Shown one piece after another: positions 23,887 to 47,592 of a DNA stretch of 64,000 nt; position 1 is the stretch's first letter; the number at the start of each line of letters is the position of its first letter. The translations under genes and the position numbers were made by a program. This DNA comes from a bacterium (GTDB lineage: Bacteria > JAMCPX01), in contig JBBIVV010000001.1 of NCBI GenBank assembly GCA_037439545.1, forward strand, positions 35,469-99,468, given 5' to 3'. Under the pieces are notes generated by a model. It did no database searches. It saw nothing but the letters and a program-made list of their open reading frames with translations, and was not told the DNA's origin.

Positions 23887-25283
23887 TTTAATGTGCCCAC
23901 AATAGTAAAATTGGTCAGATCTATAACGTCAAGATTGTTGTCCCCATAATTCAACTCGTAAAGATAGTGCTGATCCGGAGATAGAACCATTGAAAATGGA
24001 CCTTGCCCGACACTGATTCTTCCTATCACTGATTCCGTATTGGTATCGATGACGTAGATTGTATTGGAGTTATAGCATGCTACATAAAGCGTAGAGCCGT
24101 CAGCGCTGAGCGCCATGGCCTCTGGAGATTTGCCGACTTTAATGTAGTTTTCAACCGTATTGCTGCCGGTAGCGATGACAACGACGCTGTCCAGCCCCTT
24201 ATAACTGACGAAAACTTTTCTCATGTCCGGCGTCATGACGATGCCTTTCGTCACAGGAGTAGCAGTGCCTATACCTGCACCGGGAAGGTTCGGTATGTTT
24301 ATCAAACCGCTCGATGCGGTCGTATAAAAAGTAAAGCTTTCTCCGGATACGAACGGATAAACCGGATCGTAGATCGTGAAGCCGGCATCACCGTTATCCG
24401 ATGTATAAGGTATGCCTGCACGCGCATGTGCTTTCATAGGTCCTGAAACAGAACCGTTTACTAAAAAATCGGATGTTGCCGGTGTAAAACTTAATGTCCA
24501 TTCCTCTGATTTGGTCTGACAATTTTGTGTTTGCACGGACGACATAGTCTCAGTCCTGCCATAGGTATTTGTGTTGAATACGGGCAGGGTAGCAGAGCTT
24601 GGAAACATCGGATTGAACTCGCAATGATTATTTATCGAAACAACGGATATGTTGTTGTCAGCGCCTCTTGCTATATATGCATACATGTCCGGAGGTTGAT
24701 TATTAATAACAACCGGTGACGGTGTAACGACAGCATTTAAAGGGGATGCCCCCAAACCATTATTTGTCAATTGGATTCTGTAGAGCTCCTTCTGCTGTAT
24801 CGAAGAAATTATGGATACGTCATTTCCCGAGAGATTACATGAAAGCATCAACTGATCCCCGTCTACGCTGCCTATCGGTACCACTGCCGTGGGGTTTTGA
24901 TCGACCTGTATACCCGATGTTATCGTATTTATTGCAGTATCAAAAATTAAAATTCTGCTGTTTGATCTGTCTGTAAGCCAGAGGAGTCCTGTCGATGAAA
25001 GGTATGCACCGGCAATGTACGATATGTCCGATCCTTTATAGCGCATCGGTGCAACATTGGAATAAGAAGGTTGAGTGGGCGATGACAGCGAAATCATGGA
25101 TATATAGCTTGAACAATATCTCGCATCAGCATTGCTGTTTAGAACATAAAGAAAGTTGTCCTGCTTCATAATCATAGACACAGGTCCATCCATGGAATTT
25201 AAAGGCGGAGGTGTGCATTTTGGCGTATAGACACAGCCCCCGGAAAACACCGCTAAAAATGTCATTATAATTACATTTTTCAT
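23883..25283 (-). CDS. YVTN-family beta-propeller repeat lipoprotein (paralogue of 22522-23886)
   Basis: MKNVIIMTFLAVFSGGC lipobox start at 25283, overlapping the yidC stop (TGATG); repeats such as TLYVACYNSNTIYVIDTNTESVIGRISVG match the 40-residue YVTN beta-propeller repeat. Confidence 0.55.
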   Translation of the reverse strand: MKNVIIMTFLAVFSGGCVYTPKCTPPPLNSMDGPVSMIMKQDNFLYVLNSNADARYCSSYISMISLSSPTQPSYSNVAPMRYKGSDISYIAGAYLSSTGLLWLTDRSNSRILIFDTAINTITSGIQVDQNPTAVVPIGSVDGDQLMLSCNLSGNDVSIISSIQQKELYRIQLTNNGLGASPLNAVVTPSPVVINNQPPDMYAYIARGADNNISVVSINNHCEFNPMFPSSATLPVFNTNTYGRTETMSSVQTQNCQTKSEEWTLSFTPATSDFLVNGSVSGPMKAHARAGIPYTSDNGDAGFTIYDPVYPFVSGESFTFYTTASSGLINIPNLPGAGIGTATPVTKGIVMTPDMRKVFVSYKGLDSVVVIATGSNTVENYIKVGKSPEAMALSADGSTLYVACYNSNTIYVIDTNTESVIGRISVGQGPFSMVLSPDQHYLYELNYGDNNLDVIDLTNFTIVGTLK

Positions 25284-26986
25284 CAATATTTTTTTAAAAT
25301 GTAATACTGCTGTCCTATGCTGAATAAATTGTTTACAGTCCAGTAGAGGGCAAGCCCTGATGGGAATGACCATAGGATTACGGTCAGGAATATAGGCATG
25401 AACCACAGCATGAGCTTTGTTTGTGTAGGGTCAGCCGTAGTTGGGGTAAGCAATTGCTGCGCAAACATGGTTATGCCCATAATCAGCGGTAATACATGTA
25501 TACCCACTGCAAAGTTCATAAGATGTATCGTTCCAATAGTGTCGGGAGAAGCCAGATCCTTTATCCACCACATAAAAGGCGCATGCCTTAACTCTATCGC
25601 CGCTAATAAGACCTCGTAGAGCGCTATAAAAACAGGTATTTGAAGGAGCATGGGCAGGCAGCCGCCTAAAGGGTTGACCTTGTAGCTTCTATACAGGTTT
25701 GTCGTCTCCCTGTACAACCGTTCTTTGTCATCCTTGTATTTCTCTTTGATCTCATTGATCTTCGGTGCCAGCTTCTGCATCTGACGCATTGATTTGTAAC
25801 TAATCTGACCGAGGGGAAATAGCAGGATCTTTATGAGGAGTGTCATAAGAACTATTGCCCAGCCGTAATTGCCGGTAAATCTATTGGTGAATCTGAGAAC
25901 AAAGAAGAGCGGTTTTGCAATTATATTTGCCCACCCGAAATAAAGCGCTCTATTTAAATCAGAGCCGGCGCTGTTCAGCACATCTATTGCCTTTGGACCC
26001 AGGAATACGGTATAAACCTTTTTTTCTGTCGTACGGGGCCCGATGGTTACAGGGTTATAAATATAGGTCAACAGCATGGGAGTTAAATTGTTATCGGTGG
26101 TATTTGTTTTTGTGGCATAAAGATGGGCGGCAGTGGACTCACCGGGCAGCACTGTCTGGATAAAATATCTATTTTCAAGCCCGAACCATTGAATGAATCC
26201 GTCGTACGATTTTGACAGGTTGAGGGATTTTGTCTCTATGGTTTCTCTGCTATCGTTTATCAATACAATCCCGTCTGCAATGTCATATTTTGAGCCGAGT
26301 TCCCCGGACAATCCACTCCAATTTACCCCGAGCCTTTCGGTCACGGATTTATTTGAACGGTTATCGAGTGAAATCTCGACTGTAGCGGTGTAAGAATTGC
26401 CGTAGAATGTTACGGTCTTCTTTATTCCAACAAGCGAATCATTGTACGCACAGATTATCCGGGCATCGTCTTCCTTATTTTTGATTGTAACGGTAAACCC
26501 TGTTACACGTTCATTTTTTCCCGAGGTCTTTTCTCTTGCTGAAGAATCTTTTAACGGGGTAAGGTCTGAGCACGTGTAGATTATGTTTGCCGGTACTGAA
26601 AAACTTGAACCATCAAAGCTCTCCCACATGGGGTAAGAGATATCGGGCGCATTACGGATAATATCGACAGAGGGACTATCTTTCTCAAGTTCTGTCTTAT
26701 AATTTTTTAGATACCAATGCATTATCGTAAGATTGTTTGTCGACAGCTCTGCGTCATAGAAGGGGGTGTTTATATGTATGGTTTTTGCATTGGCAGATTG
26801 TTTTTCTTTGTAGGACGGGCTAAAGTTCAGCTCCCCGGCCATTTTTTGCTGAGACATTTGTTGCCCGGATGTTTGCTGCCCCGCAGGCTGGACATTTGGT
26901 TTCTTCTGTACAGGTACGACGAACCATTGATATAATACCAATACAAGAAAAGACAGGACTATTGCTATGAGTGTTCTGTTTTCCAT
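25283..26986 (-). CDS. yidC: Membrane protein insertase YidC
   Basis: 567 aa; N-terminal TM, large periplasmic domain, C-terminal five-TM core (GCLPMLLQIPVFIALY...); sits in the rpmH-rnpA-yidD-yidC cluster. Confidence 0.85.
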   Translation of the reverse strand: MENRTLIAIVLSFLVLVLYQWFVVPVQKKPNVQPAGQQTSGQQMSQQKMAGELNFSPSYKEKQSANAKTIHINTPFYDAELSTNNLTIMHWYLKNYKTELEKDSPSVDIIRNAPDISYPMWESFDGSSFSVPANIIYTCSDLTPLKDSSAREKTSGKNERVTGFTVTIKNKEDDARIICAYNDSLVGIKKTVTFYGNSYTATVEISLDNRSNKSVTERLGVNWSGLSGELGSKYDIADGIVLINDSRETIETKSLNLSKSYDGFIQWFGLENRYFIQTVLPGESTAAHLYATKTNTTDNNLTPMLLTYIYNPVTIGPRTTEKKVYTVFLGPKAIDVLNSAGSDLNRALYFGWANIIAKPLFFVLRFTNRFTGNYGWAIVLMTLLIKILLFPLGQISYKSMRQMQKLAPKINEIKEKYKDDKERLYRETTNLYRSYKVNPLGGCLPMLLQIPVFIALYEVLLAAIELRHAPFMWWIKDLASPDTIGTIHLMNFAVGIHVLPLIMGITMFAQQLLTPTTADPTQTKLMLWFMPIFLTVILWSFPSGLALYWTVNNLFSIGQQYYILKKY

Positions 26987-26988
26987 GA

Positions 26989-27243
26989 TTATGGTACCTG
27001 GTCATCCCCGCCGGCGTGGAATGGATGACATTTCAGTATCCTTTTTGCCGACAGGAATCCGCCTTTAAAGATCCCATACCTGTTTATCGCAATAATTGAG
27101 TACTCAGAACATGTCGGATTGAATCTGCATGTCGCACCGAGCAGCGGTGAAATGAAGATCCTGTAAAGCTTAATGATATTGATTGCAAATATATCTGCAG
27201 CAGTCATGGTTTTTTGTTTTATAGTATATATTATTTTGATCAT
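26989..27243 (-). CDS. yidD: Membrane protein insertion efficiency factor YidD
   Basis: [58 protein letters not shown]: canonical YidD. Confidence 0.8.
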
Positions 27244-27258
27244 GTCACGGATCTTTTA

Positions 27259-27576
27259 TTAAATCTTCGTCACGTTTAACAACTCGTCTCTTACCTGTTC
27301 GTAGGAGATAGTGCCGATATTGTTCTTGGCTATAAAGATAAAATCAACTTTCTGCATCATAGTTTTATTTAACCTAAAGAATGCCCTGAGTAATCTTTTA
27401 ATCCTGTTCCGTTTTACAGCATTTCCGGCTTTTTTGCTCACTATAATCCCGAACCTTAGAATATTCAACGTGTTTGCATGTACCAATATTATAAAATGAC
27501 GGGATTCTCTTTTATAGCTGCTGCGTTTTAGTGTCTGATAATCCCTGGATGAAACAATCTTTTCCTGCCGGGACAG
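27259..27576 (-). CDS. rnpA: Ribonuclease P protein component RnpA (non-AUG start inferred)
   Basis: Frame translates LSRQEKIVSSRDYQTLKRSSYKRESRHFIILVHANTLNILRFGIIVSKKAGNAVKRNRIKRLLRAFFRL...; the RnpA N-terminal region lies upstream of the 75-aa GTG-initiated track ORF with no in-frame ATG. AGGAG sits 7 nt before a CTG at 27576, which I take as the start; the exact start is uncertain. Confidence 0.65.
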   Translation of the reverse strand: MSRQEKIVSSRDYQTLKRSSYKRESRHFIILVHANTLNILRFGIIVSKKAGNAVKRNRIKRLLRAFFRLNKTMMQKVDFIFIAKNNIGTISYEQVRDELLNVTKI

Positions 27577-27587
27577 GCCGCAGCTCC

Positions 27588-27743
27588 TTAGAATGGCTTG
27601 CCACCGATATCCACGGTCAAACGATGCCTGCCTTTCGATCTTCTTCTGCTTAAAACAGCTCTGCCTGTTTTGGTTTCCATACGTGACAGAAAACCATGAG
27701 TCCTCGACCTTTTAACGTTATGTGGTTGATATGTCCTTTTCAT
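27588..27743 (-). CDS. rpmH: 50S ribosomal protein L34
   Basis: Not in the ORF track (51 codons). ATG preceded by GGAG; translation [51 protein letters not shown] matches the L34 consensus (MKRTYQPS..KR.RTHGFR.RM.TK.GR.VL.RRR.KGRKRLTV) with a 7-aa C-terminal extension. Confidence 0.8.
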
Positions 27744-27933: not shown

Positions 27934-29613
27934 ATGCAACAACATAAACTTTTAATAGTTACGTGGCTGTCGGATATTACGAACAGCATTCATCAGATAC
28001 TGAAAAACAACGAATATGTGTTTGACAGCGCTTCTACCCCGATTGAGGCTATGAATGCAATCGGGAAATATGCCTATAAGGTCATAGTGATTGACAGCTT
28101 ATTGCCGGGAGTGAATGGTTATCAATTGGTGAAACGTCTCAGGAATACACCTCATGCGGAAAATACAAAATTCATTGTTTTCATGAACAATTTACCTCAC
28201 GACAAACATGAAGATGTGAGCAAACGCTGGGGTATATATGCTTTGTTGAAGAAACCTGTGAAATCCGATGAAATGATGCTCATACTGAAGAAAGCAGAGG
28301 CTTATGACCTGCCAAGCGAAAAATTAGAGATGCATTCTTCTGAATCAACCGAGGCAATGCTGGCAGAGCTTGCCAGTGTTCTATGGACTGGCAAAACGAC
28401 ATGTTATGGCAAGGGCGGTATTATAAAGGAGATTTACTGGGACAGCGGTAATCCTGTTTTTGCAATAAGTAATGATGAGGACGAAAGACTTGATAAATGG
28501 CTTTTAAAAACACAGCAAGTGACTGAGGGCGTACTTAAATCAGCCTATGATATAATGAATAAAAGAGGCAAAAGGCTTGGCGATGCACTTATAATGCTTG
28601 GAGCCATTAGTGAGGACAACCTTGAGACGGCTATTTCCGATAACATGAAAGCGGTCATTATGGATCTGTTTTCATGGGATGGGGTAGAGTATACAAAAGA
28701 AGAAAAGGTAACAGGTATAAAAGAGCTGACCTCAATAAAAGATTCCCTGCCCGTAATGCTTTTTGAAGGTGTAAAAAGAAGAACTGACATGGAACGTATA
28801 AAGAAGAAGTTAGAATCAGAGGGTGGAATCGTGAGCTTTATGCCCGATAACATATTTAATATCGAAGATTTCAAATTTCCGCATTCGTATAACAGGATAA
28901 TGAACCTTATTAATGGCAAGAGAACGATATACGAGCTGATCGCTAAAAGCGGTGTGGCTCAGGACGATGCATATAGATTTATTTATATTTTATTCCTTTT
29001 AAAGTTTATAAAGCTTGGAGCTCCAGCCAACGAAGATAAGGACGGCCTTGGCAACATGCCGAAGATACAGGCAGATCCGAACAGGAAAACCAGATTTACA
29101 GGTAGTCTCAATGACATATCGATAATAGAACTTATTCAAATGCTCGAGTTCAACAGAAAATCCGGTGCACTTCAGATCAATGATGCAAATGAGATTGGCT
29201 GGCTTTTGTTCAATAAGGGAAGGATTACAGATGCATATTATGGAGATCTCACGAGACAGAATGCGGTGTACAGAATATTGTTCCTTACAGAAGGAGAATT
29301 TGAGATAAAATTTAAAGATATCGTGGGTGATCCGAGAATAGACATAGATACCCAAACGTTATTGATGGAAGGATTACGCCTGCTTGATGAAATCAAAAGG
29401 ATCGAACCTACATTCGGTAGTCTCAAAAAGCGGTTTATGATAAATTCATCTCACCGGTTCAATGCAGAAGAAGAAAAGGAAGAACTTTCGCGCATATTCA
29501 ATGGCAAGAATGATATGTTGACATCTGCATTTATGCTGAATCCGGATCCGCAGATAGGCTTTGACATTATGAACACGCTGTTAAAAAATAATGTAATCGA
29601 GGAAGGAAAATGA
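27934..29613 (+). CDS. Atypical receiver-domain protein with two repeat modules I recall as DUF4388-like (family name uncertain)
   Basis: N-terminal CheY-like fold (KVIVIDSLLPGVNG, ALLKKP) but the acidic pair is degenerate (LIVTWLSD); two repeats of a roughly 90-aa module (LAELASVLWTGKTTCYGKGGIIKEIYWDSGNPVFA... and ISIIELIQMLEFNRKSGALQINDANEIGWLLFNKGRITDAYYG...). Confidence 0.45.
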   Translation: MQQHKLLIVTWLSDITNSIHQILKNNEYVFDSASTPIEAMNAIGKYAYKVIVIDSLLPGVNGYQLVKRLRNTPHAENTKFIVFMNNLPHDKHEDVSKRWGIYALLKKPVKSDEMMLILKKAEAYDLPSEKLEMHSSESTEAMLAELASVLWTGKTTCYGKGGIIKEIYWDSGNPVFAISNDEDERLDKWLLKTQQVTEGVLKSAYDIMNKRGKRLGDALIMLGAISEDNLETAISDNMKAVIMDLFSWDGVEYTKEEKVTGIKELTSIKDSLPVMLFEGVKRRTDMERIKKKLESEGGIVSFMPDNIFNIEDFKFPHSYNRIMNLINGKRTIYELIAKSGVAQDDAYRFIYILFLLKFIKLGAPANEDKDGLGNMPKIQADPNRKTRFTGSLNDISIIELIQMLEFNRKSGALQINDANEIGWLLFNKGRITDAYYGDLTRQNAVYRILFLTEGEFEIKFKDIVGDPRIDIDTQTLLMEGLRLLDEIKRIEPTFGSLKKRFMINSSHRFNAEEEKEELSRIFNGKNDMLTSAFMLNPDPQIGFDIMNTLLKNNVIEEGK

Positions 29614-30212
29614 AAATTCTCTGTGACAAATGCGGCAATGAATTTGTAATCAAAGAAAACAATATAAGAAAACAATCCTATACAATGAGATGCCCTGTGT
29701 GTAAAAACCCCATCAATGTCAAGAGGGCAGAAGCACACGATAGTATATATGGTAAGGGTGAAAAAGCCGGTTCAACGGCAATCCAGCATCCGGCAGCCGT
29801 ATCGGTAACTACAGATATTTTACATGAGAAGACAACGGAAAACCGTGCAGCGAACCGTATAGCAGAAAGAAATAATCTTATCGCACAACAAGACATGCTT
29901 AAACAGATTGAAAATGGTTCGGATAGTATCGTGGAGGCATCTGAAAGTTTTATCGACGATGAAGGGATCGAAAGCTCTATGGAATCACGCAGAAAGGAGG
30001 ATGTCCGGCACTGGTTAATTCAGCTTGTCGATGGCATGGATGTCCCTTTTCTTGCAAGAAAATATATACCGTATATTTACTATACAATGGCGACAGTTAC
30101 TGTTTTTACCATACTATTTTTCTTTGACGATTTCATTAAGCTTCATGGCATAACACGCGGCGTTTTATCGATGTTTATACAGGCGTTCCATGATTTAAAA
30201 CACTATATATAA
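29610..30212 (+). CDS. Zinc-ribbon domain protein with C-terminal transmembrane segment
   Basis: MKILCDKCGNEFVIKENNIRKQSYTMRCPVCKNPINV (CxxC...CxxC zinc ribbon), acidic linker, C-terminal hydrophobic helix; start overlaps the upstream stop (ATGA). Confidence 0.4.
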   Translation: MKILCDKCGNEFVIKENNIRKQSYTMRCPVCKNPINVKRAEAHDSIYGKGEKAGSTAIQHPAAVSVTTDILHEKTTENRAANRIAERNNLIAQQDMLKQIENGSDSIVEASESFIDDEGIESSMESRRKEDVRHWLIQLVDGMDVPFLARKYIPYIYYTMATVTVFTILFFFDDFIKLHGITRGVLSMFIQAFHDLKHYI

Positions 30213-31012
30213 TGGATAGCTACAGGGATGCTGTAACATATAATCTCGGTTTATTAAAATTTATAAGTGGTATTGTTTATCATGACTCCACAGACTCTAC
30301 CAATACCATTGCATCGGGGCTTGCTCATGCAGGAGCTAAGGAATGGACGGTGGTTGTTGCAGATTCGCAGAATAATGGCCGCGGCAGGCAGGGGAGAGTA
30401 TGGCATTCGCCGCCGAACACGAACATATACACATCTTTTATGGTAAAACCTGATATTTCGTATGAGTATTTTCCGGCAATGAGTTTACTGGCAGGCATGG
30501 TCGTTGCCCTGCTCATTGAACAATTTACCGGAATGCCGATGGAAATCAAATGGCCCAATGATGTAATTGTCCATAATGAGAAGATAAGCGGCATACTGCT
30601 TGAACTCGGGAATGATGTTGATAACCGTGCGTATGTCGTTGTTGGTATCGGTATAAATGTAAATGCCGATGTAACCGTTTATCCCGATACTATTGCTTTA
30701 CTGTCAACGTCACTGATGCGGTTAACAGGTAAGGCATTCGACAGGGCTGAAATGATTGGCTGTCTGTACTCTATATTTTACAAATGGTATTCTCTGTACA
30801 TAAGCCGTCCTGGATTTAACTGTATACGGGAACAATACATGCAAAGATTCAAAATGATGGGGAAAGAGGTTGCCATAGTAAATGGTGCAGAAACTGTACG
30901 CGGTGTGGTAAAAGATATTGATAACTATGGGAGATTAGTGATAAAAGACTCCGATGATAGCATAGTTACCGTTAAGTCAGGAGATGTCCATTTGGTAAGG
31001 ACAGCAGTATAG
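30212..31012 (+). CDS. birA: Biotin--[acetyl-CoA-carboxylase] ligase (BirA catalytic domain, no HTH)
   Basis: DSTNTIASGLAHAGAKEWTVVVADSQNNGRGRQGRVWHSPP (GRGRxGRxW biotin-ligase motif), KWPNDV; 266 aa. Confidence 0.7.
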   Translation: MDSYRDAVTYNLGLLKFISGIVYHDSTDSTNTIASGLAHAGAKEWTVVVADSQNNGRGRQGRVWHSPPNTNIYTSFMVKPDISYEYFPAMSLLAGMVVALLIEQFTGMPMEIKWPNDVIVHNEKISGILLELGNDVDNRAYVVVGIGINVNADVTVYPDTIALLSTSLMRLTGKAFDRAEMIGCLYSIFYKWYSLYISRPGFNCIREQYMQRFKMMGKEVAIVNGAETVRGVVKDIDNYGRLVIKDSDDSIVTVKSGDVHLVRTAV

Positions 31013-31040
31013 TATTAAATAAAAACGGAGAGAGAAGATA

Positions 31041-31817
31041 ATGTTTCTTGCAATAGACGTAGGCAATACAAATATTGTTTTCGGCGTATTTGACGGTGAT
31101 AATTTACTTACCCACTGGAGGGTCGTAACTTCACGGGAAAGAACAGTGGATGAGTATAAGCTGTTACTCAGGGAATTATTTGAACTTGGCGGTGTAAAAA
31201 TATCTTCTATCGATGGTATAGCAATTTCATGCGTCGTTCCACCCGTAATAATGTCCCTCGAGAAAGCATGTGAAGATCTGTACGGTATAAAGCCTGTCGT
31301 AATAGGTCCCGGCATTAAAACGGGCATAAGCATACTTTATGATAATCCGAGGGAGGTTGGCGCTGACAGAATAGTCAATGCGGTTGCCGGATACGATAAA
31401 TACAAAAAGAATCTTATAATAGTGGATTTCGGTACGGCTACCACATTTGATTGTGTCGGTAAAAAAGGTGAATATCTTGGAGGAGTAATAGCTCCGGGCA
31501 TCGGTATTTCGCTTGAGGCCCTGTTTACACACGCATCTAAACTGCCAAGGATTGAAATAACTGCACCGCCGCATGTTATAGGCACAAACACTGTCAACAG
31601 TATGCAATCGGGCATATTTTATGGGTACAAAGCCCTCGTCGAGGGCATTATAAAACTTATTTCGAAGGAGATGAAGGAAGAAAAACCTGTGGTCATCGCA
31701 ACAGGAGGATTTGCAGAATTGATAGGTAATGCTACATCCTTTATAAACGATGTAGATGAATTCTTGACATTAAAAGGGTTAAAGCTAATATATAGTAAGA
31801 ATATTACTAAAAAATAA
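31041..31817 (+). CDS. coaX: Type III pantothenate kinase CoaX
   Basis: MFLAIDVGNTNIVFGVFDGD..., GADRIVNAVAG, IIVDFGTATTFD: canonical CoaX. Confidence 0.85.
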   Translation: MFLAIDVGNTNIVFGVFDGDNLLTHWRVVTSRERTVDEYKLLLRELFELGGVKISSIDGIAISCVVPPVIMSLEKACEDLYGIKPVVIGPGIKTGISILYDNPREVGADRIVNAVAGYDKYKKNLIIVDFGTATTFDCVGKKGEYLGGVIAPGIGISLEALFTHASKLPRIEITAPPHVIGTNTVNSMQSGIFYGYKALVEGIIKLISKEMKEEKPVVIATGGFAELIGNATSFINDVDEFLTLKGLKLIYSKNITKK

Positions 31818-31832
31818 TTGTAAGGAGGCTTA

Positions 31833-32324
31833 ATGGCTTCTGAAAATGCAGAAGACTTTTTTGAACAGGCTCTTAAATTAATAAAAGCAGGTAAGAGTCG
31901 TGAAGCCTTTGAATTACTGAAGAAGCTTGTCGAAAATGCGCCATCTTCTATTTATGAGATAGAGGCCAGGTACCTGTCGTATTATGGTTATCTGACAGGT
32001 ATGGTTGCTCACAACTATCAACGCGGTATCGAGCTGTGTAATGAGGCTATAAAAAGAGAATTCTTCCATCCTGATTTTTATCTCAACCTCGGAAGGCTGC
32101 ATCTGGCCATTAACAATAAGGGTATGGCTGTAAAGACCTTTTATAAAGGTTTGAGGATTGATAGAACGAATAAGGGACTCATAGAAGAAATAAAAAAATT
32201 GGGTGTAAGAAAGAAACCCATTTTTTCGTTCCTGGGCAGGGAGCATCCTGTCAACAAGCTCGTCGGTAAAATCAGGACATCATTCCACGGATTAATAAGG
32301 GGGAAAAATGGCCGGAAACAATGA
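31833..32324 (+). CDS. Hypothetical helical (TPR-like) protein
   Basis: 163 aa, helical repeat-like (EAFELLKKLVENAPSS...YYGYLTGM...ELCNEAIK...YLNLGRLHLAIN); first gene of a tightly coupled five-gene operon. Confidence 0.35.
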   Translation: MASENAEDFFEQALKLIKAGKSREAFELLKKLVENAPSSIYEIEARYLSYYGYLTGMVAHNYQRGIELCNEAIKREFFHPDFYLNLGRLHLAINNKGMAVKTFYKGLRIDRTNKGLIEEIKKLGVRKKPIFSFLGREHPVNKLVGKIRTSFHGLIRGKNGRKQ

Positions 32325-34392
32325 TCACACGAGGAATATCGCAATTATAGGTATTGGTGCAAGCGGAAAAACGCAGCTCGCAGATACTTTTCTCTTCAAT
32401 GCAAAAGCAGTTCCAGGCATAGGGAAAGTAATAGATAAAACATCCAACATGGTCCTTGAGCAGGAGGAATTTGAGCATCTTACAACCATTACTGCCTCTC
32501 TCGCTACTGTTGAAATCAACGGAATAAAATTCAATTTTATCGATACGCCGAGTCAGGACGGATTTATTGCTGAAACGATCAATTCTCTCCAGTCTGTTGA
32601 CGGTGCAATCTTTTTAATGAGTGCACAAACCGATATAAAGCAGGAGGCAGAAACACTCATGAAGTATACGGCAGCATTTCATCTGCCGGTCATCTTTCTT
32701 ATAAACAAGATGGATGGCGAAAATGCGGATTTTTACAACGCACTGCATGAATACGGCACGTACCTGAATATCAAACTTACGCCTGTTGCCCTGCCAATCG
32801 GGAGCGGTGAGAAGTTCGAAGGTATTTATAATATCATTGATAAGAAAACATATCTTTATCCAAAAGATGCTTCCGGTCATCCGAAACAGGTTGCAGGCAA
32901 CATACCTGAAGATGTTGAGGAATTTGAGAAGGGATTGTTCGAGACTGCTGCTGAAAACGACGATGCCCTGCTCGAGAGGTACCTGAACAATGAAAAATTA
33001 AAGGTTGAAGAAATAATCGAACCTATAAAAAAGGCGGTCTCATCCAGAAACATGTTCCCGGTCATGCCTGGTTCCGCGCTGCTTAACATTGGTATGGACA
33101 AATTGACCGAGTTCTGTTTTTCATGGCTCCCTGCTCACCACGAAGTAAATGGGAAAACAATTCTAAAACCCTCCCATGGAGACGGGGCCATTGAGGTCAA
33201 GCGCACTGCATCGGAAAAGCCGGTTCTTTTTATATTTAAGACGACGATAGATCCTTATTCCGGTAAGATGAGCTATGCAAGGATTCTTGCCGGCAGGATA
33301 AATCAGGATACAGTCGTTTATAATGCCTCAACAGGGGCGGAAGAGAAAACAAACCATATTTACACCATGATAGGGAAGAAGAGCAAACTTATCAATGCGG
33401 CAGAGTGCGGCGACATTGTTGCGCTCGCAAAGCTGCAGGCAACCAGGACAGGAGATACGCTGAAAGCAATAAAGGATGCATTTGCTGTTCCGCAGTTATA
33501 CAGGCCGAAAAAACTTGTTTCGTATGCGGTTAAACCCAAGGGTAAGAGCGATGAGGAAAAGGTTACACAGACACTGAACAAAATCCTCGAGGAGGACACA
33601 TCGCTATCACTCAGGAGGGATGCTCAGTTAAAGGAATTGATACTTGAGGGTGTGTCTAAAGAACAGCTTGAAATTGTTATGCATAAAGCGAGGAGGAAAT
33701 ACGGCATAGATTTAGAGTTGGTCTTGCCGGACATCCCATACAAAGAGACCATAAAAGGAAGAGCAGAGGCACAGGGTAAGTATAAAAAACAATCAGGGGG
33801 CAGGGGGCAGTATGGTGATGTATGGATAAAGCTTGAACCGCTTGCAAGGGGAAGAGGTGTTGAATTTATAGACAAAATAGTCGGAGGTGCTATACCAAGA
33901 CAGTATATACCTGCAGTAGAAAAGGGGATAAGGGACGCAACGACGGAAGGTTTCCTTGCAGGTTTCCCGGTTGTAGATTTTGCTGCAACTGCGTATGATG
34001 GATCATATCATGATGTTGATTCATCCGAACTTGCATTTAAGATTGCAGGTTCGTTTGCTTTTAAAAAGTGTATGGAGAGTGCAATCCCTGTAATACTTGA
34101 ACCTATAATGTTAATTACTGTAACAGTGCCGGAGGCCTTTACCGGAGAGGTTATAGGCGGGCTTAATTCTAAAAGGGCAAAGATACTCGGTATGGCTCAG
34201 GATGAGAATAAGAAGCAGGTGATAAAGGCACATGTGCCTTTATCAGAGGTTCAAATGTATGGAGATGAATTGCGTTCCATAACAAAGGGGATGGGGACTT
34301 TTGATATCGAATACTTCGGCTATGAGGAGGTTCCTTCGCATATAGCTGAAAAGATTATTGGCAGTAAAAATAAAAAAGAAGTAAAGGTATAG
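32308..34392 (+). CDS. EF-G-family translational GTPase paralogue with degenerate G3 motif
   Basis: G1 GIGASGKT, switch-I-like EHLTTITAS, G3 position reads IDTPSQDGF (canonical DTPGHVDF), G4 NKMD, G5 GSAL; C-terminal EF-G domain IV/V signature (QSGGRGQYGDVWIKLEPL...FAFKKCME); 694 aa. Confidence 0.7.
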   Translation: MAGNNDHTRNIAIIGIGASGKTQLADTFLFNAKAVPGIGKVIDKTSNMVLEQEEFEHLTTITASLATVEINGIKFNFIDTPSQDGFIAETINSLQSVDGAIFLMSAQTDIKQEAETLMKYTAAFHLPVIFLINKMDGENADFYNALHEYGTYLNIKLTPVALPIGSGEKFEGIYNIIDKKTYLYPKDASGHPKQVAGNIPEDVEEFEKGLFETAAENDDALLERYLNNEKLKVEEIIEPIKKAVSSRNMFPVMPGSALLNIGMDKLTEFCFSWLPAHHEVNGKTILKPSHGDGAIEVKRTASEKPVLFIFKTTIDPYSGKMSYARILAGRINQDTVVYNASTGAEEKTNHIYTMIGKKSKLINAAECGDIVALAKLQATRTGDTLKAIKDAFAVPQLYRPKKLVSYAVKPKGKSDEEKVTQTLNKILEEDTSLSLRRDAQLKELILEGVSKEQLEIVMHKARRKYGIDLELVLPDIPYKETIKGRAEAQGKYKKQSGGRGQYGDVWIKLEPLARGRGVEFIDKIVGGAIPRQYIPAVEKGIRDATTEGFLAGFPVVDFAATAYDGSYHDVDSSELAFKIAGSFAFKKCMESAIPVILEPIMLITVTVPEAFTGEVIGGLNSKRAKILGMAQDENKKQVIKAHVPLSEVQMYGDELRSITKGMGTFDIEYFGYEEVPSHIAEKIIGSKNKKEVKV

Positions 34393-34393
34393 T

Positions 34394-35539
34394 ATGGATA
34401 AAAAAGACAAAGAAACAAAAAAAACAATAGCAGATGAGCTGTTGGAAGATAATTTCTTTAAGCCTCCCATGGATGATGTGATTGATGATGAGGTGCCGGA
34501 AAAACATGGTGTTTCGGATGCAGGAGAGGAAGGACCTGAAAAAAGTGACAGCAGTCTTCTCTTTGATGAGTTTCTTAAATCGCCCGTTGAAATATCACCT
34601 GAAGAAACTTCTGAATTAACGATAGAGGAAAGGCCTGTTATCCCTCAGACTCGGGAGGCAATTCCCGACATACATCCCACGGTATCTGCATCCCGGTCTG
34701 CAGCAGTTCTAAAGACTGCAGGACCTTCCGGAAGCAAGATGAAGTTGATAATAGCATCTCTCGGAGGCGGTGCGGTCCTTTTATTAGCAGTTGCCGGATA
34801 TTTTTATTTAGGTCATAAATCCACTGATACGACCCGGAGCACTGCCGTAACAGGCTCACAAACTATTGTCATGACTCATGAAACACCGCCTTCCGGAGTA
34901 CAGCCTCCTGAAGTTACCCGTGAGAGCGCCAAACCTGCACCATTGCCTGACGGCAATCATGAAAACAACCCGACGGTCAAGGAACAGACACCGCATCAGC
35001 CAGGTCAGCAGGTAGCTGAGAATGTTCCTCCTGTTCAAACGTCTCAGCCTGCCCAGACAATCCAGGAAGCGTCAAAACAGTTTGAAGTTGCACTCGAGAA
35101 GATCAAGACAAAAGCAGCATTGGACAGGGTAAAACGGATTGGAGCTTCAATAGATAAATCATTAAATTTCGATATCAAGGAAAATACGGCGAACAATACC
35201 CTGTATAACCTTTATGTCGATAAAATATATTCCTCGGAAGGCGAGGCTACAGCGGACAATCTTAAACTTATGGTAGCCAATATATCGAACGCTTCGGTTA
35301 TTAAGGCTGATGGAGGATACCGGATACTTATAGGTAAATACAACTCAAGAGGACCCGCCGATACTGATATGAAGAATATAGAATCAGCAGGACTTAAAGG
35401 GGTAATAAAAGAAGCTACCAGTAAAGTTTCAACCTATAATATAAGAGTTTTTCCTTTCAAATCATCGAAAGATGCCAAAGAGTATATTTCGAAAGTGAGA
35501 AAATTAGCGTTCAAGGCAAGCTTTTCAGAAATAAAATAA
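34394..35539 (+). CDS. Membrane-anchored protein with acidic N-terminus, Pro/Gln-rich linker and C-terminal SPOR-like repeat(s)
   Basis: TM segment LIIASLGGGAVLLLAVAGYFYL; low-complexity PPEV/QPGQQ region; C-terminus GGYRILIGKYNSRGPADTDMKNIESAGLKGVIKE and TYNIRVFPFKSSKDAKEYISKV resemble SPOR (RNP-like peptidoglycan-binding) motifs. Confidence 0.45.
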   Translation: MDKKDKETKKTIADELLEDNFFKPPMDDVIDDEVPEKHGVSDAGEEGPEKSDSSLLFDEFLKSPVEISPEETSELTIEERPVIPQTREAIPDIHPTVSASRSAAVLKTAGPSGSKMKLIIASLGGGAVLLLAVAGYFYLGHKSTDTTRSTAVTGSQTIVMTHETPPSGVQPPEVTRESAKPAPLPDGNHENNPTVKEQTPHQPGQQVAENVPPVQTSQPAQTIQEASKQFEVALEKIKTKAALDRVKRIGASIDKSLNFDIKENTANNTLYNLYVDKIYSSEGEATADNLKLMVANISNASVIKADGGYRILIGKYNSRGPADTDMKNIESAGLKGVIKEATSKVSTYNIRVFPFKSSKDAKEYISKVRKLAFKASFSEIK

Positions 35540-35540
35540 T

Positions 35541-36743
35541 ATGTTTGAGAATCTATCGGATAATGCAAAACTTTATTTAAAAGAATCAGTGCCGGCGCAG
35601 CTCGTGTCTGCTGTTGTAAGGGGCTTGGTGCCGCTTGAGCCGAAGGAACTGCTGATAGTGATTGCCTATCATTATGTGAATGGTAACGATCAGATAAAAG
35701 CTGATGCAGTAAATACCCTTAAATCTCTTCCATCCAACATTATCGACACCGTGGTCGGAGGCGATGTGCCTGATTTTGTCCTTGGATTCATATATCACAA
35801 CAGCACACTATCACAGACTGCCGTTTATCCTTTTATAACAAACAAGAATCTTTCGGATGACATGTTTATAGAACTTGCGCGCAGCGATAATGAAGCAATT
35901 CTTGAACTTATTGCAAAGAACCAGATGAGGATCCTGAAGAATGACAAGATATTCGATACAATCATTACGAATCCACATTTACCGAAGATATTGAGGGACC
36001 AACTCATGGAGTTTTTTGCGACCTTGGCAAGTAAACAGCTGAGGAAGCTCAATATTAAAATAGAAAAAAAAGATGTCCGGCAGCCTGATAAAACAAAAGA
36101 CCTTCCTTCATCTGTAATCAATCCTGCAGGTTTGCCCTCTGATCTAAAATCATCTGATCTTCCTTCTGACATGCAGGGGCAGGGACTCCCTTCAAATGTT
36201 GCCATGCTTCCTTCAAACGTACTTTCAGGCTTACCGTCCGATGCGCTCGATAACCTGCCGGTCAACCTTATGATGGAAGGGCTTCCGTCAGAATTAATAC
36301 AGGATGAAGCCGTTCAGATCGAAGATGAAGGTGTCAAATTGACACTTTTTCAACATATACAAAAGATGACTGTTTCCCAGAAGATAAAGCTTGCTTTGCT
36401 CGGAAATAAAGAGGCCCGCACGATACTTTTCAGAGACTCCAACAGGATCGTTATTGAGTCGGTCATGAAGAGTCCCCGCATAACTGACGGTGAAATACTT
36501 GGTATCGCAAATTCACGGAGTGTAAGCGAAGACATTGTCAGGATAATTGCCGCGAACAGAGAATGGCAGAAAAATTACAGAGTTCGCCAGGCACTTGCCG
36601 GCAATCCGAAAACTCCTGTGCCCATTGCGTTGAAATTGCTTGAAACTATATCAAAACAGGATTTAAAGAGTCTCAGTAACAGCAAAAATATTTCTTCGGT
36701 TATTGCTACGACAGCAAAACGAATGATAGGAGATGTGAAATAA
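35541..36743 (+). CDS. Hypothetical repeat protein (helical HEAT/ARM-like ends, central degenerate GLPS(D/N/E) repeats)
   Basis: Central run LPSDLKSSDLPSDMQGQGLPSNVAMLPSNVLSGLPSDALDNLPVNLMMEGLPSEL; C-terminal helical repeats (ALAGNPKTPVPIALKLLE). Start ATG overlaps the upstream stop; its stop overlaps the mglA-like start (TAATG). Confidence 0.35.
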   Translation: MFENLSDNAKLYLKESVPAQLVSAVVRGLVPLEPKELLIVIAYHYVNGNDQIKADAVNTLKSLPSNIIDTVVGGDVPDFVLGFIYHNSTLSQTAVYPFITNKNLSDDMFIELARSDNEAILELIAKNQMRILKNDKIFDTIITNPHLPKILRDQLMEFFATLASKQLRKLNIKIEKKDVRQPDKTKDLPSSVINPAGLPSDLKSSDLPSDMQGQGLPSNVAMLPSNVLSGLPSDALDNLPVNLMMEGLPSELIQDEAVQIEDEGVKLTLFQHIQKMTVSQKIKLALLGNKEARTILFRDSNRIVIESVMKSPRITDGEILGIANSRSVSEDIVRIIAANREWQKNYRVRQALAGNPKTPVPIALKLLETISKQDLKSLSNSKNISSVIATTAKRMIGDVK

Positions 36744-45567: not shown

Positions 45568-47592
45568 ATGAAAAAGTATATACTATTAAATCTGGTAATG
45601 TTTTTGTTTGCCTATGCGGGCTGTACAAGCAGTTCGTCGTCACCAGCATCGGGCCCTAAAGTATTTTTCAAACCTGCTGCAACAGCTTCAGGTGTCGTTT
45701 ACCGGTCGATTCCATTTCCCAACGATCTTTATCTTTCAGGCAATGTATACAGCTCAGCGGGCTTCAATGCGATAGCTCCAAGCACTGATCCGAACCTTTC
45801 ATCGAGGACAGCACTGAACAACATGCTGATTCCCATGATGAACACGATAGACGGCTTTGGCACATCAGGCGCCGTGCTGTTCAGCCTGTCCGGCACCGTC
45901 GACCAGTTGACCCTGCCGCAAACAGTTCAGGCCTCGTTACAACCGACTGCGAGCGCATTCATCATCGATATAGATCAAAATTCGCCGGATTATGGAAAGC
46001 TCGCCCCTGCGGTGTTTCTTTTTACTGCAACGACTTACAATGGCACCGATTACCTTTATACGCTCGGGATCAAGCCTGCGTACGGCTATCCTCTGGCCCA
46101 AGGAACCAGGTATGCTGTTGTCATAACCACAAAGGTTAAAGGCAGCAATGGCGCAGGTCTTTCACCGGATGCGGGCTTCAATACGATAAAAACGTCTGCT
46201 GTCCTATCGGACCCTTTGCTCGAAAAGGCGAGGCAGTTGTACGCACCGCTATTTTCAATACTCTCGAAACCGCCCTATGATCTCGGCTATTCAAATATAG
46301 CCGGTGCAACGGTGTTCACGACAGAGCAAATAACGCCTGTCATACAGCATATTATATCTTGGCTCACGACGACGACCTTGCCGATTCCAAACTTCACCTC
46401 AACGACTGAGCAGTCCACGGTTATCTCCAAGCCTACATTCTCATACATCACCGGAGAATTCGCATCGCCGAACTTTCTGACTGATCCCGTATCAGGCACG
46501 ATACAGGTCGATGCGGCGGGCAATCCCATATTGCAGGGCTGGTCGACGTTGTATTTTTCTGTCACTGTGCCGGCAGCGGCACCGCCTGCAGGCGGCTATC
46601 CGGTTGCGATTGTCCAGCATGGCCTGGGCAGTGACCGGGCACAGATAATCCTGTCCGTTGCAGACCGGTTCGCACAGCATGGCATAGCATGCATCAGTAT
46701 CAATGCAGTCGATCACGGTGACAGGGCTCCGGGTGGCGACGCAACCAAAGCTACTATTGATTTTCTGAATTTTGTCGCACCATTTTCTATCCGCGATCAT
46801 TTTATTCAGACTGTTACGGACATAATCCAGCTCTCGAGGCTTGCACAGAGTCCCACGCTTACAACCTTGCTTACAACATATATGGGCAGGCCGGTCATGT
46901 TCAATACGACGAACGATACGAATCCCACTTCATACATAGGACAGTCGCTCGGCGGCATCATAGGAAGCTTTTATATAAGTGTTGCTCCCTACACGAAGAA
47001 TGCAGTGATCAATGTCGGTGGAGGGGAGCTTTCATCATTACTTATGAACTCGCCGGTCATCTACACGGAGTTTATGCCTATCATTTCGAGTATACTTGCG
47101 ATACCATCGTGGATTGTCCCTTCACTTGCTACCGATGAAGTGGTGATGTTCCAGTCTTTGATCGATCCCGGGGATTCGATGAATTACGGACGTTTCGCAC
47201 TGAAACAGCCGCTTTCAGCACTTGGATTTACGAAACAGATACTGTTCCAGATGGCTGACCTTGACCAGCTTGTTCCTCATCTATCGACAGAAGGAGAGGC
47301 AACTGCTATGGGCGTTACCGGCGTATCGAGAGGAGACACCGACCCGCTCATCGTCCTCCCTTTTTTCACCTTTACGACATATACTCCGCCGGTGAATATG
47401 AACGGTATATATCAGTACTATGGCACGCATGGTATGCTGAATACTCCTACTGATACAGTAGCGCTTGAGGAAACCTATCCGTTCGCAAAATTGGCCAATC
47501 CGCTTACCATAACCAATCCTTTAATACAGATTCAAAACCAGGCAGCGACGTTTCTCACCACGGGCGTGATTATCAATCCATGGGTTCCGTAG
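45568..47592 (+). CDS. Secreted lipoprotein with alpha/beta-hydrolase (lipase/esterase-like) core
   Basis: Lipobox LFAYAGC; GxSxG nucleophile elbow GQSLGGIIG; HGLGSD oxyanion-hole-like region; 674 aa; SD GGGAGG. Confidence 0.5.
   Translation: MKKYILLNLVMFLFAYAGCTSSSSSPASGPKVFFKPAATASGVVYRSIPFPNDLYLSGNVYSSAGFNAIAPSTDPNLSSRTALNNMLIPMMNTIDGFGTSGAVLFSLSGTVDQLTLPQTVQASLQPTASAFIIDIDQNSPDYGKLAPAVFLFTATTYNGTDYLYTLGIKPAYGYPLAQGTRYAVVITTKVKGSNGAGLSPDAGFNTIKTSAVLSDPLLEKARQLYAPLFSILSKPPYDLGYSNIAGATVFTTEQITPVIQHIISWLTTTTLPIPNFTSTTEQSTVISKPTFSYITGEFASPNFLTDPVSGTIQVDAAGNPILQGWSTLYFSVTVPAAAPPAGGYPVAIVQHGLGSDRAQIILSVADRFAQHGIACISINAVDHGDRAPGGDATKATIDFLNFVAPFSIRDHFIQTVTDIIQLSRLAQSPTLTTLLTTYMGRPVMFNTTNDTNPTSYIGQSLGGIIGSFYISVAPYTKNAVINVGGGELSSLLMNSPVIYTEFMPIISSILAIPSWIVPSLATDEVVMFQSLIDPGDSMNYGRFALKQPLSALGFTKQILFQMADLDQLVPHLSTEGEATAMGVTGVSRGDTDPLIVLPFFTFTTYTPPVNMNGIYQYYGTHGMLNTPTDTVALEETYPFAKLANPLTITNPLIQIQNQAATFLTTGVIINPWVP

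Follow-up and report, generated by a model that had tools for sequence, protein, structure and literature searches.

In 2011, Margus, Remm and Tenson described EFG II, a subfamily of elongation factor G (EF-G) (PMC3150367). According to their survey, EFG II proteins have poorly conserved domains I–III and a relaxed RGITI motif in which the Thr/Ser is kept; they conserve G1, G3 (as DxPG), G4 and G5, and they are marked by five 'type I' positions (Gly16, Leu25, Thr291, Gly333 and Lys352 in the numbering of PDB entry 1WDT) and by a Lys–Lys pair in loop I of domain IV (PMC3150367). As a rule, genomes that encode an EFG II protein always encode a further EF-G as well (EFG I or spdEFG). Here we describe an EFG II protein encoded by a 64,000-nt stretch of bacterial DNA (positions 35,469 to 99,468 of contig JBBIVV010000001.1, assembly GCA_037439545.1; hereafter the window), whose gene occupies positions 32308–34392 of the + strand of the window. 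It belongs to a clade in which the switch II motif, DxPGH in canonical EF-Gs, has become DTPSQ.

Characterized EF-G2 proteins and an EF-G variant provide the points of comparison. Thermus thermophilus EF-G-2 is reported to be active in ribosome-dependent GTP hydrolysis and in translocation. Mycobacterium smegmatis EF-G2, in which the catalytic His is replaced by Tyr, has no ribosome-dependent GTPase activity and traps post-translocation ribosomes under stress. Bacteroides thetaiotaomicron EF-G2 (fusA2) is a slow, GTP-sparing factor that is induced when carbon runs out and can keep translation going with no GTP being consumed. Finally, the H91Q variant of Escherichia coli EF-G hydrolyzes GTP at 174 s-1, compared to 202 s-1 for the wild type, and releases inorganic phosphate (Pi) at 1.2 s-1 instead of 28 s-1, i.e. 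more than 20-fold more slowly (Koripella et al. 2015, PMC4532990).

The gene is an ATG-to-stop open reading frame (ORF) encoding a protein of 694 residues with five domains (G including G', II, III, IV and V), which matches the full EF-G set of Pfam families (GTP_EFTU, EF-G_D2, EFG_III, EFG_IV and EFG_C). Its residues 6–689 align with Staphylococcus aureus EF-G with E = 1e-140 (phmmer, PDB sequences), and the segment 'idtpsqdgf' stands opposite the S. aureus segment 'idtpghvdf' without a gap, which makes the Gly-to-Ser and His-to-Gln changes true positional substitutions. The motifs were located by translation, all on the + strand. The P-loop (G1) reads GIGASGKT (residues 15–22, 32350–32373): the GxxxxGKT frame is kept, while the His and the Asp of the canonical AHxDxGKT are replaced by Ile or Phe and by Ala, respectively. 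Switch I (G2) reads EHLTTIT (residues 56–62, 32473–32493) and retains the Mg-binding Thr60, the Arg of RGITI being replaced by His57. Switch II (G3) reads DTPSQDGF (residues 79–86, 32542–32565), with Ser at position 82 in place of Gly and Gln83 in place of the catalytic His. NKMD (G4, residues 133–136, 32704–32715), which confers guanine specificity, and GSAL (G5, residues 255–258, 33070–33081) are intact. The first-pass annotation of the window had described precisely this combination of an altered G3 with preserved G1, G4 and G5, and every element of it was found in place.

A second, canonical DxxG followed by His was also sought in the protein. The sole other DxxG is the sequence DASGH (residues 187–191, 32866–32880, +), and we rejected it as a candidate G3: lying after G4 and inside the G' insert, it is unable to act as such, and its His varies among orthologues (His in ten, Arg in seven, Lys in one).

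The family models place the protein among EF-G2-type paralogues. It scores 763.2 bits against NCBIfam NF009381 (PRK12740.1-5, an 'elongation factor G' subfamily), above the cut-off of 583, and it stays below the cut-off of the canonical EF-G model TIGR00484 (571.5 versus 659.4 bits), of the Actinobacteria-type EF-G2 equivalog NF009377 (491.8 versus 890 bits), of the Bacteroidetes-type equivalog NF058620 (EFG2_Bacteroid; 469.4 versus 1000 bits) and of the tetracycline protection model NF012153 (tet_protect; 266.1 versus 775 bits). Beyond the tight clade, identity falls to about 45% in the next database matches. These come from Geobacteraceae, Thermodesulfovibrionales, Nitrospirota and other groups, in each case as a second EF-G copy, and the residue after their DTPG is always Tyr, Phe, Asp or Val.

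An alignment of 18 clade, 77 EFG II and 20 EFG I sequences was then read at the diagnostic positions. The five type I residues are present as Gly15 (the first P-loop position), Leu24 (two residues past GKT), Thr312, Gly356 and Lys375, and show little or no variation within the clade; the three in domain II were mapped by residue identity (Ile/Thr, Ala/Gly, Gly/Lys) and not by direct alignment with 1WDT. Lys493–Lys494, the domain IV loop I pair, is found in 18/18 clade sequences, where EFG I has Ile–Arg, and so is HLTTI with Thr60, that is, a relaxed G2 that keeps the Mg-binding Thr. Of the 25 positions by which EFG I and EFG II can be told apart, the protein has the EFG II residue at 19 and the EFG I residue at none. 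In a tree built by neighbor joining, a distance method, the clade is monophyletic (100/100) and nested inside EFG II (100/100 for the split separating EFG I from EFG II plus the clade), with a sister group that carries DTPG and RG[IV]T (98/100). Conversely, the marks of canonical EF-G (EFG I, fusA) are missing: the protein has GIGASGKT, HLTTI and DTPSQ instead of AHxDxGKT, RGITI and DxPGH, and its gene lies outside the str operon, next to birA, coaX, TPR and SPOR genes, with no rpsL, rpsG or tuf. The gene product therefore belongs to EFG II (EF-G2-type), whose members are accessory paralogues of EF-G that normally coexist with a canonical one; it is an unusual form of a family already known, not a novel system. 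The initial reading of the gene as an EF-G paralogue was right, and the gene is not the housekeeping fusA.

With the rest of the subfamily the protein also shares the lack of a catalytic His and the fast evolution of the first three domains next to a conserved domain IV. It differs by its P-loop Ile or Phe instead of His, by a Gln at the His position that is unique to the clade, and by its G3, which departs from the EFG II consensus DxPG (17 of the 18 clade sequences have DTPS, and one has DTPA). DxPG is a motif reported as conserved and not the defining criterion; phylogeny and family model place the protein inside EFG II.

How unusual this switch II is was assessed on 146 other 50%-identity cluster representatives from an exhaustive search. 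In the corresponding 151-representative alignment the switch I columns are shifted by one, and only the G3, G4 and loop columns were used. The DxxG Gly is kept in 145 of the 146 representatives, the exception having Ala, as well as in 77/77 near EFG II relatives and 20/20 EFG I proteins; to our knowledge, this Gly is almost never replaced in P-loop GTPases. The catalytic-His position is occupied by Tyr in 66 representatives, Phe in 29, Asp in ten, Ser and His in seven each, Leu in six, Ala in five and other residues in 16, and by Gln in none; six of the seven His belong to canonical DTPGH EF-Gs and one to an EFG II-like protein. Loss of the catalytic His, as judged from these sequences, is thus the normal state across EFG II, usually with Tyr or Phe instead. 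Two features are specific to the clade: Ser, or Ala in one sequence, stands in place of the DxxG Gly, and the His position holds an invariant Gln (Gln83, 18/18). Other clade-specific changes at positions invariant in the sampled EFG I and near EFG II proteins are Asp49Val, His16 of the P-loop to Ile or Phe, and Arg57His (His in 18/18 clade sequences, Arg in 77/77 EFG II and 20/20 EFG I). Note that further EFG II subgroups can likewise begin G2 with a His (Margus 2011, PMC3150367), so that Arg57His is not unique family-wide. The whole clade falls within one 50%-identity cluster and is therefore a small, rare lineage. We have not come across a description of a Ser–Gln switch II, and it is unique among the approximately 146 nearest cluster representatives.

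The motif is not a sequencing error, as shown by its orthologues and by the synonymous variation within them. Indeed, DTP[S/A]QDGF occurs in 21 distinct sequences, drawn from 15 database proteins (65–100% identity), nine genome loci and three metagenome loci; the nine loci are full-length and from species-representative genomes, a tenth (L011) that ends before G3 being left out of the count. All 21 also share the P-loop G[IF]G[AGS]SGKTQ, HLTTIT and NKMD. Around the fixed G3 peptide the codons differ synonymously (ACG/ACA/ACC/ACT, CCG/CCC/CCA, AGT/AGC, CAG/CAA, GAC/GAT, GGN). By the Nei–Gojobori method, the ratio of nonsynonymous to synonymous substitution rates (dN/dS) across ten orthologues amounts to about 0.06 for the whole gene, to 0.08 for the G core and to 0.05 for the P-loop and switch segments taken together, values to be read with the caveat that most orthologue pairs are saturated at synonymous sites. 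Judging from these sequence comparisons, the non-canonical G3 is old and under purifying selection. The lineage is uncultured; database records label it Deltaproteobacteria or unclassified bacterium.

The retention of domain IV and V signatures, which had been noted at the outset, is borne out by a closer comparison. The protein keeps 88 of 94 universally invariant EF-G positions, three of the six changed ones lying in the switch regions of the G domain. In domain IV, loop I, KYKKQSGGRGQYG (33778–33816, +), with the EFG II-specific Lys–Lys, and loop II, YDGSYHDVDSSE (33994–34029, +), which forms the decoding-center tip and keeps every universally invariant residue, are invariant in the clade, the latter as YDGSYHxVDSSE. 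Domain IV is 63–66% identical to both EFG I and EFG II, compared to 30–32% for the G core. Relative to other EFG II proteins, with EFG I as the outgroup, the clade evolves faster in domains G, II and III, and not in domain IV; the strongest constraint bears on the decoding-center loops of domain IV and on domain V. An AlphaFold2 (AF2) model of the protein (mean predicted local distance difference test score 88.3, predicted template modeling score 0.81) superposes best on ribosome-bound states of EF-G, with template modeling (TM) scores of 0.86–0.92. Since the domain IV tip loops are invariant, a ribosomal role appears far more likely, on sequence and model grounds, than a non-translational one, which is made unlikely by the conservation of everything that contacts the decoding center.

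We also compared the protein with the characterized factors one by one. Like the clade, T. thermophilus EF-G-2 (PDB 1WDT/2DY1) is an EFG II member without catalytic His and with a relaxed G2 (TM 0.81): its motifs are GHAGSGKTTL, LHRTTV, DAPGYGDF and TKLD, as read from an exact match to residues 1–154 of 1WDT. By contrast with the clade, neither its DxxG Gly nor its P-loop His (in GHAGSGKT) has been lost. The ribosome-bound (70S) M. smegmatis EF-G2 (PDB 9K0Z/9K10; TM 0.90) resembles the clade in that the catalytic His, the P-loop AHxDA and the switch I Arg are all replaced, and it binds the 70S ribosome despite these replacements; it differs by a Tyr where the clade has Gln, by its intact DxxG Gly and by TKLD at G4. 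B. thetaiotaomicron EF-G2 (PDB 8DMF; TM 0.87) is likewise an accessory EF-G paralogue, of a type whose family model (NF058620, cut-off 1000) the window protein, at 469 bits, does not reach. Its loss of GTPase activity is reportedly due to a 26-residue insertion and not to a change in G3; a Bacteroidetes-type (YGYSV) EF-G2 was sought among the retrieved proteins for motif reading, and none was found. As for E. coli EF-G H91Q, it shares with the clade the Gln at the catalytic His position of switch II, but it is a single laboratory change in an otherwise canonical EF-G whose Gly is intact.

What these changes mean for the GTPase cycle can be approached residue by residue. GxxxxGKT, Thr60, Asp79, NKMD and SAL are invariant in the clade, from which we infer that nucleotide binding is retained. 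The backbone of the DxxG Gly contacts the nucleotide's gamma-phosphate. In Ras, replacement of this Gly by Ala (G60A) is drastically detrimental to GTPase activity and brings about a shift to the inactive state 1. In M. smegmatis EF-G1, R62Q markedly lowers ribosome-dependent GTPase activity and H88Y abolishes it. The P-loop AHxDA is replaced in the clade, as it is in the GTPase-inactive M. smegmatis EF-G2. Impairment of hydrolysis is thus plausible by analogy, mainly through Gly82Ser and Arg57His. Gln is the catalytic residue in most non-translational G proteins. Within the clade the switch segments are 87% identical (36–39% compared to other EF-Gs) and domain IV 88%, and this equal constraint suggests a working, if different, switch. 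The claim that the protein binds GTP and is impaired in its hydrolysis is therefore supported in its first half, in that the nucleotide-binding elements are kept; impairment is plausible from Gly82Ser and Arg57His, set against the wild-type-like hydrolysis of H91Q. The loss of the catalytic His, which had been taken as a sign of impairment, is normal for EFG II and is found (DAPGY) in the reportedly GTPase-active T. thermophilus EF-G-2. Although the GTPase status is uncertain, a slow or Pi-release-limited cycle on the ribosome would be the best reading of the sequence and of these analogies.

Taken as a whole, the protein is likely to be a ribosome-acting EFG II member whose GTPase center has been remodeled and selected, with slowed or altered hydrolysis and Pi release. 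According to this model, it would bind Mg-GTP through the intact P-loop Lys and Thr, the switch I Thr60, Asp79, NKMD and SAL; it would dock on the ribosome as EF-G does, the domain IV tip entering the decoding center, as the invariant loops and the match of the model to ribosome-bound EF-G suggest; and the translocated state would then be promoted or held. Remodeling of the GTPase center would have taken place on the stem of the clade, with Gly82Ser, Gln83, Arg57His and the change of the P-loop His to Ile or Phe, followed by strong purifying selection. As a consequence, GTP hydrolysis and the release of Pi are predicted to be slowed or altered, and the protein could serve as a slow, energy-sparing translocase or as a ribosome-dwelling factor under stress or starvation, in the manner of B. 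thetaiotaomicron and M. smegmatis EF-G2.

Several points weigh against this model. The nucleotide binding, ribosome binding and GTPase rate of the clade are all inferred. The clade breaks the DxPG reported throughout EFG II, which makes extrapolation from characterized EF-G2 proteins uncertain, and these proteins themselves differ, T. thermophilus EF-G-2 being GTPase-active and those of M. smegmatis and B. thetaiotaomicron not. No second EF-G, which the co-occurrence rule calls for elsewhere in the genome, was detected by tblastn in the 64-kb window. At one related locus (L166, CP070770.1, 3441–4789), the EFG II homologue is an intact ORF of 448 residues that covers only residues 246–691 of the query, at 49% identity; it lacks G1–G4 and G', has a PemK toxin gene just before it, and may be either a pseudogene remnant or a factor devoid of a G domain. 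Lastly, EFG II is found next to SPOR, helical-repeat and MglA-like genes in a conserved arrangement, described below, and may thus be linked to the cell envelope or to polarity in a way for which the model does not account.

The first alternative to be weighed is that the protein is a fully competent GTPase, the clade having gained a Ras-type catalytic Gln (DTPSQ, cf. DTAGQ in Ras) after the EFG II ancestor had lost its His. We consider it unlikely, although arguments can be made for it: Gln83 is found in all 18 clade sequences and in none of the 146 other representatives (which have Tyr, Phe, Asp and others), H91Q hydrolyzes GTP like the wild type on the ribosome, the acidic helix of G', ETAAENDDALLERYL, is present along with all Mg and GTP ligands, and the switch regions are constrained as much as domain IV. 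These arguments are opposed by the Ser that replaces the DxxG Gly, given the effect of G60A in Ras; by the switch I Arg-to-His change, at the position equivalent to that of R62Q in M. smegmatis EF-G1, which markedly lowers GTPase activity; by the loss of the P-loop His and Asp; and by H91Q itself, in which Pi release is slowed more than 20-fold.

A second alternative involves the neighborhood of the gene. The EF-G paralogue is the sixth of nine same-strand (+) genes spanning 27934–37636, separated by −4, −1, 28, 15, −17, 1, 1 and −1 nt. The string starts with a response-regulator receiver–PATAN (DUF4388) protein (27934–29613), assigned to it by Pfam, gaps and synteny; this protein also shows a sub-threshold match (31.4 bits, cut-off 38; residues 188–235) to the MshEN-like cyclic di-GMP-binding motif NF053729. 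It continues with a 200-residue Zn-ribbon protein (29610–30212; tested with Pfam for the Zn-ribbon domain only), a BirA-like biotin–protein ligase (30212–31012; BPL_LplA_LipB and BPL_C), a type III pantothenate kinase (CoaX, 31041–31817; Pan_kinase) and a small TPR protein (31833–32324), the 3' end of whose gene overlaps the start of the EF-G paralogue by 17 nt. One nucleotide past the stop codon of the EF-G paralogue begins the gene for a SPOR-domain protein (34394–35539), followed by that for a Pfam-less protein made of two alpha-helical repeat domains and a disordered linker (35541–36743) and by an ORF (36743–37636) encoding an MglA-family small GTPase (residues 1–192) with a C-terminal extension of about 105 residues. 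Residues 1–192 align without gaps with Myxococcus xanthus MglA (E = 9e-73), and the equivalents of MglA Arg53, Thr78 and Gln82 are present, including within TDRTLFFDF and YTVPGQ. No MglB (Robl_LC7/Roadblock), the cognate GAP of MglA, was found by Pfam among the operon proteins or ten further ORFs of the window, a set that does not comprise every small ORF. A scan of 27.0–39.5 kb for promoters and terminators gave counts not above shuffled expectation (29 versus 33.6 and 12 versus 9.6, respectively), so that the operon is called from gene spacing and synteny. The EF-G paralogue is probably co-transcribed with the birA, coaX, SPOR, helical-repeat and MglA-family GTPase genes.

Gene order is identical across all orthologous loci of the clade. 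The core string, (nadC-)birA-coaX-EFG II-SPOR-helical repeat-MglA-like, also flanks EFG II copies with a normal DTPG, namely those of the sister group, of Geotalea toluenoxydans (Geobacteraceae), of L012/L013 and of L167. The neighborhood therefore existed before the G3 change, to which it is not peculiar. The string comes apart elsewhere. The Myxococcota loci (L084, L085) have the helical-repeat gene without EFG II, SPOR or MglA-like genes; L168 has the helical-repeat and MglA-like genes, no EFG II and no Pfam match for SPOR; L089 has EFG II, SPOR and helical-repeat genes without an MglA-like gene, and L090 and L014 likewise have EFG II and helical-repeat genes and no MglA-like gene; and L166 has SPOR, helical-repeat and MglA-like genes with an EFG II reduced to domains II–V. 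The MglA-family GTPase gene directly follows the helical-repeat gene in every lineage sampled (the window, L082, L083, L012/L013, L166, L167 and L168). In the EFG II survey, conserved gene context is reported only for EFG I (PMC3150367), and EF-G neighbors go unmentioned in a survey of the small GTPases of prokaryotes. The co-location of EFG II, SPOR, helical-repeat and MglA-like genes is real and apparently unreported; it mixes in housekeeping genes and does not single out the EF-G paralogue.

A more far-reaching idea, which we put forward as a long shot, is that the clade represents a natural translational GTPase devoid of both switch II hallmarks, with a Ras-type Gln and a tolerated Ser, which would act as a long-lived GTP or GDP-Pi 'timer' on the ribosome and, being coupled to the SPOR, helical-repeat and MglA-family genes, would link ribosome state to envelope or polarity control in Desulfuromonadota-like bacteria. 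Slightly less credible still is a reading derived from the first-pass annotation, in which an EF-G-like protein that binds GTP and does not hydrolyze it would have been recruited, together with the MglA-family GTPase, to a task outside translation, in cell polarity or division. In its favor speak the tight packing of the nine same-strand genes, which lie −17 to +28 nt apart, the conservation of the EFG II-SPOR-helical repeat-MglA-like order in the clade, the sister group, Geotalea, L012/L013 and L167, and the presence of the long MglA-like gene in the cluster in every lineage sampled. However, the same neighborhood surrounds EFG II copies with a normal DxPG, which dissociates the G3 change from the operon; the cluster contains the housekeeping genes birA and coaX; EFG II and MglA-like genes are both absent from the Myxococcota cluster, and either can be missing alone (EFG II in L168, MglA-like in L089); no MglB/Roadblock partner appeared among the proteins scanned; and constraint is strongest on the decoding-center loops and domain V. 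Together with the AF2 match to ribosome-bound EF-G, this leaves the non-translational role unsupported. Two last readings have a negligible probability: a Tet(M)/Tet(O)-type ribosomal protection protein, which shares the EF-G-like five-domain fold and gives weak NCBIfam matches but scores 266 bits against NF012153 (cut-off 775) and has domain IV loops of the EF-G type; and an error of sequencing or of assembly, or else a pseudogene that has drifted since its duplication, which the faster evolution of domains G, II and III might evoke but which is already refuted by the 21 independent orthologous sequences and the dN/dS of about 0.06, in addition to the intact 694-residue ORF and the synonymous changes around the fixed motif.

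The remaining features of the window may be listed briefly. Directly upstream of the operon and divergent from it lies the rpmH-rnpA-yidD-yidC cluster (25283–27743, −; annotation from the identical Logan contig L001). Downstream are a gene for a 290-residue protein with a signal-peptide-like N-terminus and no Pfam match (37681–38553, −) and an OsmC-family gene (38550–39104, −), a pair that is also kept together downstream of the operon at several of the orthologous loci. Farther away, a 674-residue ORF (45568–47592, +) has no Pfam match at E ≤ 0.001, a PBP2-type transpeptidase is encoded at 60112–61932 (+), and the ORFs at 57.7–63.0 kb have sizes typical of an mreBCD-pbp2-rodA cluster, an assignment checked for the PBP and made by size for the rest. 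No RNA family matched the window at the Rfam gathering thresholds.

EF-G2-type paralogues are emerging as translation factors of starvation and stress that spare GTP or park ribosomes, and the reason why only some of them hydrolyze GTP is unsettled. In this respect the clade amounts to a natural experiment at the two most conserved positions of switch II, its His-to-Gln change being the natural counterpart of H91Q, which uncouples GTP hydrolysis from Pi release. Since the gene string also occurs in a named Geotalea (Geobacteraceae) genome, it could be studied in a cultivated relative, and the clade could reveal to what extent a translocase of the ribosome is able to do without canonical GTPase chemistry or to rewire it.

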